A stretch of 8,624 bases of DNA from a virus (IMGVR_UViG_2541047910_000001), one strand, 5' to 3'. Shown: positions 7,468 through 8,624, counted from the first letter of the stretch. Made by a program: numbers and translations. The notes: generated by a model from the letters alone, not told the origin.

Positions 7468-8262
7468 ATGAAGCCAGAAAAAGCTATCGAGATATTAAAA
7501 AGACAACGGGAGCAAATCCCAGCAATACAAAATGAACGAAGGAGTACAGGAAATAACCCAAGTTTTAACTTATGGCAAAGAAACACTAAGACCGCCATAT
7601 CAAAAATATTTGGTGAAGAGTCAGATCACAAAAAAGAATTTGGCTCAATTCGATACTCTTTAATGGCATTTGTTGGTGATACACCAGATTATGTTTTCGA
7701 TAACGCATTTTGTAGTGGTTTAGATGAAGCACATTCTCTTCTTACGTCTATGATTGCTGAGATTGAAGAATATGGAATTGACGGAAATTTCATAGAGACA
7801 AAAAATGATCCCGTAGCTCTTGTTGAACTAATTTGCCATCAATTTCATAAGGTTGCAAGACAGCTACAGCAACGACACGATAATAGACAAACCATTGAAA
7901 TAAATGACGAATATGACGTTCAGGATTTATTTCATGCTCTTTTGAAGATTCATTTCGAGGATGTCAGACCAGAAGAATATACGCCAAGCTATGCAGGATC
8001 TTCAACACGAGTTGACTTCTTGTTAAAGAATGAAAAAATCATTATCGAGTTAAAGAAAACGAGAAAAAATCTCAAGCAAAAAGAAGTTGGTGAGCAATTA
8101 ATTGTTGATATAGCTCATTATCAAACGCATCCTGATTGCGAAACTTTAGTGTGTTTTGTATATGACCCTGAAGGTAGAATTGCCAATCCAATTGGTGTGG
8201 AGAATGACCTTGAGCGTTGTACAAATTCAATTTCGGTAAAAGTAATAATCTCACCAAAATAA
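7468..8262 (+). CDS. Hypothetical protein with C-terminal PD-(D/E)xK nuclease-fold motif; candidate defence or toxin nuclease
   Basis: Good SD (gaggaaag) upstream; helical N-terminal region, then motif block EYDVQDLFHALL ... STRVDFLLKNEKIIIELKK (D183 at 8014-8016, E194 at 8047-8049, K196 at 8053-8055) ... QLIVDIAHY, the classic restriction-endonuclease-like D-x(n)-E-x-K arrangement; gene is markedly AT-rich. Confidence 0.6.
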   Translation: MKPEKAIEILKRQREQIPAIQNERRSTGNNPSFNLWQRNTKTAISKIFGEESDHKKEFGSIRYSLMAFVGDTPDYVFDNAFCSGLDEAHSLLTSMIAEIEEYGIDGNFIETKNDPVALVELICHQFHKVARQLQQRHDNRQTIEINDEYDVQDLFHALLKIHFEDVRPEEYTPSYAGSSTRVDFLLKNEKIIIELKKTRKNLKQKEVGEQLIVDIAHYQTHPDCETLVCFVYDPEGRIANPIGVENDLERCTNSISVKVIISPK

Positions 8263-8272
8263 AAGGACATAT

Positions 8273-8539
8273 ATGGCTACTGTAGATGATGTTGCACAAT
8301 GGATGAAATCAGAGCTGGAAAACACAAACTGGCTATATCAAGAAACTGTTGTATATAAAATAAAAGAGTTATTTGGCGATACTTTCGTATATTTGAATGC
8401 TAATGGAAATTTATCCATTGATAAAAAAGTATTAGCGAAGTTTAGAAAGCTAACTAATGACACGGTTATATGGGAGAGAGGTGAAAAAGCATGGCGAAAA
8501 AGACAAGGTTATGATGCCCCTGGTCGACAGCAGGACTAA
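8273..8539 (+). CDS. Small hypothetical protein co-transcribed with the nuclease-fold protein; possible partner, immunity or antitoxin component
   Basis: 88-aa ORF starting 10 nt after the upstream stop, with AAGGA 5 nt before the ATG; basic C-terminus (KAWRKRQGYDAPGRQQD); same AT-rich composition; followed by the terminator. Confidence 0.55.
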   Translation: MATVDDVAQWMKSELENTNWLYQETVVYKIKELFGDTFVYLNANGNLSIDKKVLAKFRKLTNDTVIWERGEKAWRKRQGYDAPGRQQD

Positions 8540-8545
8540 ATAATT

Positions 8546-8572
8546 GGTTCGCACAATGACGTTATGCTAAAG
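8546..8572 (+). other. Degenerate dif-like sequence (XerC-arm-like, 5-nt spacer, XerD-arm-like)
   Basis: ggttcgcacaa matches GGTGCGCATAA at 9/11 and ttatgctaaag matches TTATGTTAAAT at 9/11, but the spacer tgacg is 5 nt rather than the canonical 6. Confidence 0.3.
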
Positions 8573-8573
8573 A

Positions 8574-8609
8574 GGCCGCTGCGGGATTCGATTTTCGCAG
8601 CGGCCTTTT
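8574..8609 (+). terminator. Rho-independent terminator of the plus-strand accessory operon, embedded in a longer imperfect inverted repeat
   Basis: Perfect 10-bp GC-rich stem ggccgctgcg/cgcagcggcc (8574-8583 and 8596-8605), 12-nt loop, then TTTT (8606-8609). The repeat extends to 22 nt per arm (8562-8583 vs 8596-8617, 19/22 matching). Confidence 0.65.
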
Positions 8610-8624
8610 CAACATAACGAGTCG

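Follow-up and report, generated by a model that had tools for sequence, protein, structure and literature searches.

The closest studied relative of the nuclease domain described here, as judged from its sequence, is that of bAgaN, the DNase of long-B Argonaute (BPAN) systems, whose C-terminal PD-(D/E)xK domain is homologous to it (PMC10620215; PMC13535254; PDB 23wq). EcbAgaN is a non-specific DNase whose C-terminal domain is toxic when isolated and whose N-terminal domain autoinhibits the dimer until Argonaute drives its assembly into an octamer (PMC13535254), and its D298A and E309A/K311A mutants lose both DNase activity and the ability to degrade genomic DNA (PMC10620215; PMC13535254). A second point of comparison is PDC-S35, a computational single-gene phage-defence candidate, for which our literature search found no published work. 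SpbK of ICEBs1 resembles our protein in joining a sensor and a toxic effector in one protein of ~260–300 aa encoded on a mobile element, and Shedu (DUF4263), NERD and Mrr_cat proteins belong to the same nuclease superfamily and likewise follow the general scheme of a regulatory N-terminus preceding a nuclease effector. CdiA-CT EC869-type DNase toxins and the Type II enzymes BstYI and BamHI are structural neighbours of the nuclease, with sequence identities of ~10–13%; the toxins operate in contact-dependent inhibition together with an immunity protein and the Type II enzymes in restriction–modification together with a methyltransferase, and both groups lack the N-terminal domain of our protein.

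We analysed a DNA stretch of 8,624 nucleotides (IMGVR_UViG_2541047910_000001; hereafter the window), which derives from an Escherichia coli filamentous (inovirus) prophage with a unit of ~9.5 kb. The minus strand encodes a secretin, Zot (pI-like), a DUF2523 protein, a 570-aa g3p-like protein, a small coat-like protein, the G5P ssDNA-binding protein, and the G2P replication initiator; the plus-strand features are listed in Table 1. The gene studied here is preceded by a GAGGA ribosome-binding site at a distance of 6–10 nt and encodes a 264-aa protein (WP_001527023.1) that corresponds over its full length to phrog_29450, a PHROG of the category unknown function.

Table 1. Features on the right-hand side of the window, numbered from its first nucleotide.
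Feature	Coordinates	Strand	Evidence
HTH_3 repressor-like protein, prophage backbone	6432-6878	+	Pfam HTH_3, E = 1.6e-9
140-aa protein, phrog_4174, without Pfam family, prophage backbone	6978-7400	+	
Exchangeable cargo slot, nuclease and DUF6953	7401..8539	+	Identity break between tandem copies; GC
Gene of the 264-aa two-domain protein, stop codon included	7468..8262	+	ORF list
N-terminal four-helix-bundle domain, aa 1-105, putative sensor/regulatory module, common to PADLOC PDC-S35	7468..7782	+	
PD-(D/E)xK nuclease domain, aa 118-264, Pfam PF18742 REase_DpnII-MboI	7819..8259	+	Pfam, PADLOC, AF2
Acidic cluster D147-E148-Y149-D150-V-Q152-D153, invariant, start of helix alpha-1	7906..7926	+	Conservation; helix 148-162
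Predicted catalytic Asp183 codon (RVDFLL), start of strand beta-2	8014..8016	+	Invariant; aligns with EcbAgaN D298
Predicted catalytic Glu194-Leu-Lys196 (ExK motif, IIIELKK), strand beta-3	8047..8055	+	Conservation; aligns with EcbAgaN E309/K311
Q210...D214...Y218 motif	ends at 8121	+	
88-aa DUF6953 protein, 10 nt 3' of nuclease gene	8273..8539	+	Pfam PF22266, E = 1.8e-28
17-bp GC-rich hairpin then UUUU, likely intrinsic terminator of the rightward transcription unit	8570..8615	+	Fold -39.4 kcal/mol, z = -6.45

That the C-terminal part of the 264-aa protein is a PD-(D/E)xK nuclease is near certain. A sequence-only reading of the window had pointed to four motifs of this superfamily, and all four are found at the positions it gave. 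Residues 118–264 match the Pfam profile PF18742 with E = 6.9e-59 and 198.1 bits (cut-off 27), covering profile positions 2–150 of 150; at E ≤ 0.1, the only other Pfam match of the protein is a spurious one to CENP-S. When 40 homologues of 52–85% identity were aligned, D147, E148, D150, D153, D183, K196, D214, and Y218 were invariant, and E194 and Q210 were conserved at a level of at least 90%. Because the whole PF18742 profile is matched and the residues are conserved in homologues, the motifs are not a chance D...ExK pattern. The PADLOC profile Aga_Helical-REase also matches this part of the protein (E = 1.3e-34, aa 97–263, profile positions 216–375 of 378). The domain had already been recognised, both by Pfam and by the RefSeq annotation ('PD-(D/E)XK nuclease domain-containing protein').

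Predicted structures agree with the profile matches. The full-length AlphaFold2 (AF2) model has a mean pLDDT of 85, and a model of the nuclease domain alone has a pLDDT of 87.6 and a pTM of 0.85. The modelled core runs from helix 148–162 through strands 166–169, 183–186, and 191–197 to helix 204–218 and strand 226–232, followed by helix 241–249 and strand 256–262, and thus has the canonical alpha-beta-beta-beta-alpha-beta order of the restriction-endonuclease core. D183 opens strand beta-2 and E194-x-K196 lies within beta-3. Conservation and the models together show a restriction-endonuclease-like fold with D183, E194, and K196 as the predicted catalytic residues. No single Foldseek match to a solved PD-(D/E)xK structure is strong (best E = 9e-3); the best match of the isolated nuclease domain is the PD-(D/E)xK enzyme EndoMS/NucS, and the Shedu nuclease domain is among the weak matches. 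The candidate families suggested by the earlier reading were not borne out: DUF4263, NERD, and Mrr_cat gave no Pfam match at E ≤ 0.1, PADLOC gave no Shedu match, and the family is PF18742. The protein likewise has no Pfam match at E ≤ 0.1 to the DpnII family proper or to a DNA-recognition domain, and neither Pfam nor PADLOC detects a TIR domain in it.

EcbAgaN is the sole sequence match of the protein in the PDB (E = 0.26 when the single sequence is the query and 3.9e-4 for the family profile), and D183, E194, and K196 fall, residue for residue, on D298, E309, and K311 of EcbAgaN. Both proteins consist of a helical N-terminal domain, then a linker, then the nuclease. They differ, however, in length (264 aa compared to 390 aa for EcbAgaN) and in the N-terminal domain, which is ~105 aa long and of the PDC-S35 type in our protein but ~220 aa long in AgaN, with the PADLOC match beginning only at position 216 of the profile. 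Neither the ORFs of the window nor their Pfam matches include an Argonaute or PIWI gene, and no Argonaute is present among the best 25 of 104 Pfam families of the immediate neighbours of 80 homologues. Since no Argonaute was found and the N-terminal domain is a different one, the activating signal must differ from that of AgaN. Membership of the 264-aa protein in BPAN was considered and rejected, as the window lacks an Argonaute and the N-terminus lacks a match to the AgaN N-terminal domain.

The first ~140 residues had been described from sequence as a region without recognisable motif that might be a sensor or targeting domain. As a unit of structure this region did not survive: in the AF2 model it comprises a four-helix bundle of ~105 aa (helices 3–15, 17–27, 31–48, 53–59, and 74–102), a low-confidence, disordered linker at residues 107–111, and a helix at 115–135 that already belongs to the nuclease domain. 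The suggested role fared better, if by indirect evidence. Residues 1–107 match the PADLOC candidate PDC-S35 with E = 3.6e-11, although only at profile positions 1–103 of 264. PDC-S35 proteins resemble ours in having the same N-terminal four-helix bundle, a single gene, a length of ~260 aa, and wide horizontal transfer, whereas their effector is mostly a CAP12/Pycsar-type TIR domain in place of the PF18742 nuclease. We built a profile from the N-terminal domain only and searched it against 1.84 billion cluster representatives, which yielded 1,618 proteins (50%-identity clusters) at E ≤ 1e-3 and 665 at E ≤ 1e-10. Among the matches listed, 95 N-domain relatives were at least 180 aa long, and 94 of these matched PDC-S35. 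Their effectors included CAP12/Pycsar-type TIR (41 proteins), TIR_2 (8), and TIR (3) domains, DpnII-MboI nuclease domains (19), and one each of PNP_UDP_1 and Hypoth_Ymh; many of the 95 had C-termini without a Pfam family, and such C-termini formed more than 20 sequence clusters. By PADLOC, single N-domain relatives carry SpbK-like TIR, ThsB-like TIR, or Aga_HEPN effectors. A precomputed match to PF28130 covers the N-terminus of a few homologues. Thus, sequence comparison shows alternative predicted toxic domains swapped onto one N-terminal domain, and the combination of one constant small domain with interchangeable toxic domains is the usual signature of an abortive-infection sensor or regulatory module, which supports the earlier guess of a sensor, the same domain being fused to TIR, HEPN, phosphorylase, and nuclease effectors. 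The bundle could instead be merely an oligomerisation or inhibitory module. We also considered whether it is the SpbK sensor and rejected this identity: some N-domain relatives carry an SpbK-type TIR (P0197, E = 1.5e-66), which is absent from the window protein, but the SpbK-model matches in these relatives span only the TIR part (profile positions 111–307), and the SpbK N-terminus is not homologous.

The most likely and best-supported reading, which we hold with moderate confidence, is that the 264-aa protein is an autoinhibited single-protein abortive-infection or defence DNase that combines sensor and effector and is carried as a moron by a chronic prophage. We infer a defence role, autoinhibition, a trigger, and non-specific DNA cleavage. 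The C-terminal half would be a Mg2+/Mn2+-dependent PD-(D/E)xK DNase of the PF18742 clade that uses D183, E194, and K196 together with the acidic helix D147–D153. In the resting cell, the N-terminal domain would hold the nuclease inactive; recognition of an infection-associated cue through this domain would then relieve inhibition, cause oligomerisation, or both, and the activated nuclease would degrade DNA without sequence specificity, so that the invader is destroyed or the infected cell is killed or arrested (abortive infection). A chronic, non-lytic filamentous prophage would gain from a host population that withstands lytic phages or rival mobile elements. The protein is most likely not a classical restriction enzyme, half of a toxin–antitoxin pair, or a core phage function. 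Our literature search, which covered DpnII-MboI, DUF6953, PDC-S35, and the accessions of the protein, revealed no experiments on the protein or its N-terminal domain, and the latter was known only as catalogued within the computational candidate PDC-S35; the nuclease-bearing form, carried by inoviruses and IncX4 plasmids, is new as a variation on a known theme.

We also advance, more tentatively and at somewhat less than an even chance, a broader proposal. The ~105-aa bundle may be a minimal, widespread invader sensor that detects a conserved component of phages or plasmids directly and can activate five or more killing domains unrelated to one another (three TIR types, HEPN, nucleoside phosphorylase, and AgaN-like DNase), and the DNase version, present on at least two unrelated inoviruses and on IncX4 plasmids, may protect the host from lytic phages or rival elements. 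This would be abortive infection encoded by an inovirus, in which DUF6953 acts as a modulator specific to the lineage.

The full-length family is large and widely spread. It comprises 3,617 clusters at 90% identity, almost all of them encoding proteins of 259–270 aa, and identities of 43–59% are found across Proteobacteria, Cyanobacteria, Planctomycetota, Bacteroidota, Verrucomicrobiota, Acidobacteriota, Spirochaetota, Firmicutes, and CPR bacteria; this distribution points to frequent horizontal transfer. When 1,053 ORFs from 81 loci were clustered, no neighbouring gene family was shared by more than 4 loci, and the gene of Pectobacterium polaris, whose product is 85% identical to ours, is solitary among housekeeping genes. 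Thus the nuclease is a stand-alone gene without an obligatory partner. In Pfam and PADLOC scans of 113 immediate neighbours, S subunits of Type I systems, Type IIG enzymes, PIN and HEPN proteins, integrases, transposases, a relaxase with its coupling protein, and conjugation genes turned up only here and there; the resulting signal of defence-island enrichment is weak, the neighbour counts being raw counts. No recurrent methyltransferase was found among the neighbours of 80 homologues, and the window contains none at all.

Most members of the family reside on chromosomes and conjugative plasmids, and phage-borne members are a small minority. The backbone of IncX4 conjugative plasmids includes a homologue of 44% identity, with matches in 207 plasmid records, of which 161 are conjugative. 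On the Salmonella IncX4 plasmid NC_021841 (L082 4878-5669), this homologue encodes the 263-aa protein WP_000163250.1 and lies near genes for H-NS, Hha, and a topoisomerase. In several plasmid records the IncX4 homologue is annotated 'malate dehydrogenase', which looks like a propagated mis-annotation. Homologues are carried by 33 IMG/VR viral contigs, some of which are 30–60 kb long, and one of 58% identity occupies the equivalent position in an unrelated inovirus of 8.2 kb (IMGVR_UViG_2654587799_000001; Rep_trans initiator, Zot, secretin). The gene in this second inovirus (L088 6875-7651) has three in-frame stops near codons 28–35 and may be a pseudogene or the product of an assembly error.

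Within the E. coli prophage, the nuclease and DUF6953 genes are mobile cargo. The genome record NZ_OZ547090 contains two tandem prophage copies, the identity of which stops at window position 7400/7401 and resumes at 8540, and the sister copy, which lacks the cassette, has an HTH protein that is 100% and a 140-aa protein that is 98.6% identical to those of the window. The GC content of the cassette is 33–37% compared to 40–47% for the remaining phage. Of 5,426 complete E. coli genomes, 24 have the cassette, and the backbone (G5P-G2P-HTH) is present in 90 at ≥ 80% coverage and has some match in 137, so that the cassette occurs in 24 of about 90–137 genomes with the backbone. By megablast, the window is up to 100% identical to sequences in E. 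coli chromosomes, beside hipBA. The ~9.5-kb phage with the nuclease cassette is also found as tandem copies on the Klebsiella pneumoniae plasmid NZ_CP132684 (IncFIB/IncHI1B; L083); the tandem unit places the target gene inside the phage unit, and the copies indicate that the phage crosses genera and can integrate into plasmids. GenBank phages gave no match to the window by megablast or tblastn, and the prophage is represented only in IMG/VR and bacterial genomes. With as many as 3 mismatches allowed, no E. coli dif sequence was found within L001, and integration at dif is accordingly not proposed. The cargo of the sister copy (L001 4925-5916; ORFs 5036-5503 and 5549-5920) consists of two unrelated genes, encoding proteins of 155 aa (phrog_6723) and 123 aa (phrog_22661) without Pfam family, the former with a weak PADLOC match to PDC-S57 (E = 3e-4); these genes may be an alternative accessory or defence cassette.

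This genomic setting bears on the alternative that the nuclease serves the phage itself, by cleaving the replicative form of a superinfecting filamentous phage (superinfection exclusion), by processing phage DNA, or by degrading host DNA. Such a role would suit a gene that shares its direction of transcription with the repressor-like HTH gene and lies inside a tandemly repeated phage unit, and the homologue in the equivalent position of a second, unrelated inovirus fits it as well. However, roughly three quarters of the E. coli genomes with the prophage backbone lack the nuclease, the slot of the tandem sister copy is filled by other genes, members of the family are found overwhelmingly outside phages, and G2P, G5P, Zot, and the secretin already provide for replication and assembly. 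We therefore consider a life-cycle or competition enzyme unlikely; excluding rival elements would in practice amount to one form of the defence explanation.

The arrangement of the nuclease and DUF6953 genes, which are 10 nt apart on one strand and move jointly as one cassette in E. coli and Klebsiella, raises the further alternative of a toxin–antitoxin (addiction) pair that stabilises the prophage, with DUF6953 neutralising the nuclease. DUF6953 is a small family (91 clusters, 87–99 aa), and the pair was seen in two settings only, the E. coli/Klebsiella inovirus and Morganella, where the nuclease is decayed. In Morganella morganii (L120, L121 5600-6267), a DpnII-MboI pseudogene with several in-frame stops lies directly 5' of an intact DUF6953 gene, the product of which is 76% identical to that of the window. 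DUF6953 thus persists after the nuclease has decayed, as expected if an antitoxin outlives its toxin. Against this, DUF6953 occurs in none of the 80 loci of nuclease homologues from other species, the 85%-identical Pectobacterium nuclease stands alone, the IncX4 plasmid homologues lack DUF6953, more distant DUF6953 genes adjoin unrelated HTH_17/DUF2158 or GDPD genes, and the nuclease has a regulatory domain of its own. An addiction pair accordingly appears improbable. On these contexts we reject an obligatory role of DUF6953, whether as partner or as antitoxin, and regard it as a lineage-specific companion rather than a required partner or general antitoxin.

A sequence-specific restriction endonuclease akin to DpnII/MboI that works without a cognate methyltransferase and would cut unmethylated incoming DNA while host methylation (for example by Dam at GATC) shields the chromosome is a poor candidate, because the N-terminal domain is common to TIR, HEPN, and phosphorylase effectors that do not read DNA, no DpnII-family or DNA-recognition domain is matched at E ≤ 0.1, the protein holds little beyond a minimal 150-aa core and the helical bundle, copies of 45–59% identity occur in phyla with very different methylation backgrounds, and the nearest studied relative, EcbAgaN, is a non-specific DNase.

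If the autoinhibited defence DNase is the correct reading, it represents a single-gene defence family with thousands of members in most bacterial phyla, in which one very small sensor module controls interchangeable effectors, and the DNase of long-B Argonaute systems works without Argonaute too. It would also be one more of the few examples of a chronic filamentous prophage with immunity genes from which the host profits; here the prophage is found in clinical and animal E. coli and on a Klebsiella plasmid. The homologue in the IncX4 backbone could matter for plasmid–phage and plasmid–plasmid competition. If the reading is wrong, the finding is that of a correctly recognised, already annotated PD-(D/E)xK domain.

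Several minor features of the prophage were also recorded. The 140-aa protein upstream of the cargo slot is hydrophobic by eye and might be a superinfection-exclusion factor. The 85 bp that follow the slot (8540-8624) are present in both tandem copies with 95% identity and contain the hairpin listed in Table 1, which could alternatively be a phage single-strand DNA signal. At the window junction 214-218, 876 bp of the intact prophage copies (L001 6218-7093) are missing; two small ORFs are lost with them, as are roughly the final 69 codons of the pIV-like secretin gene, so that this prophage copy may be unable to export virions. Among the matches listed, all complete E. coli genomes match the window in at least two pieces, and none has the 876-bp deletion. 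The 570-aa ORF at 2580-4292, which occupies the position of g3p (the receptor-binding minor coat protein), is without a Pfam match, and its RefSeq version is shorter, at 1,563 bp.
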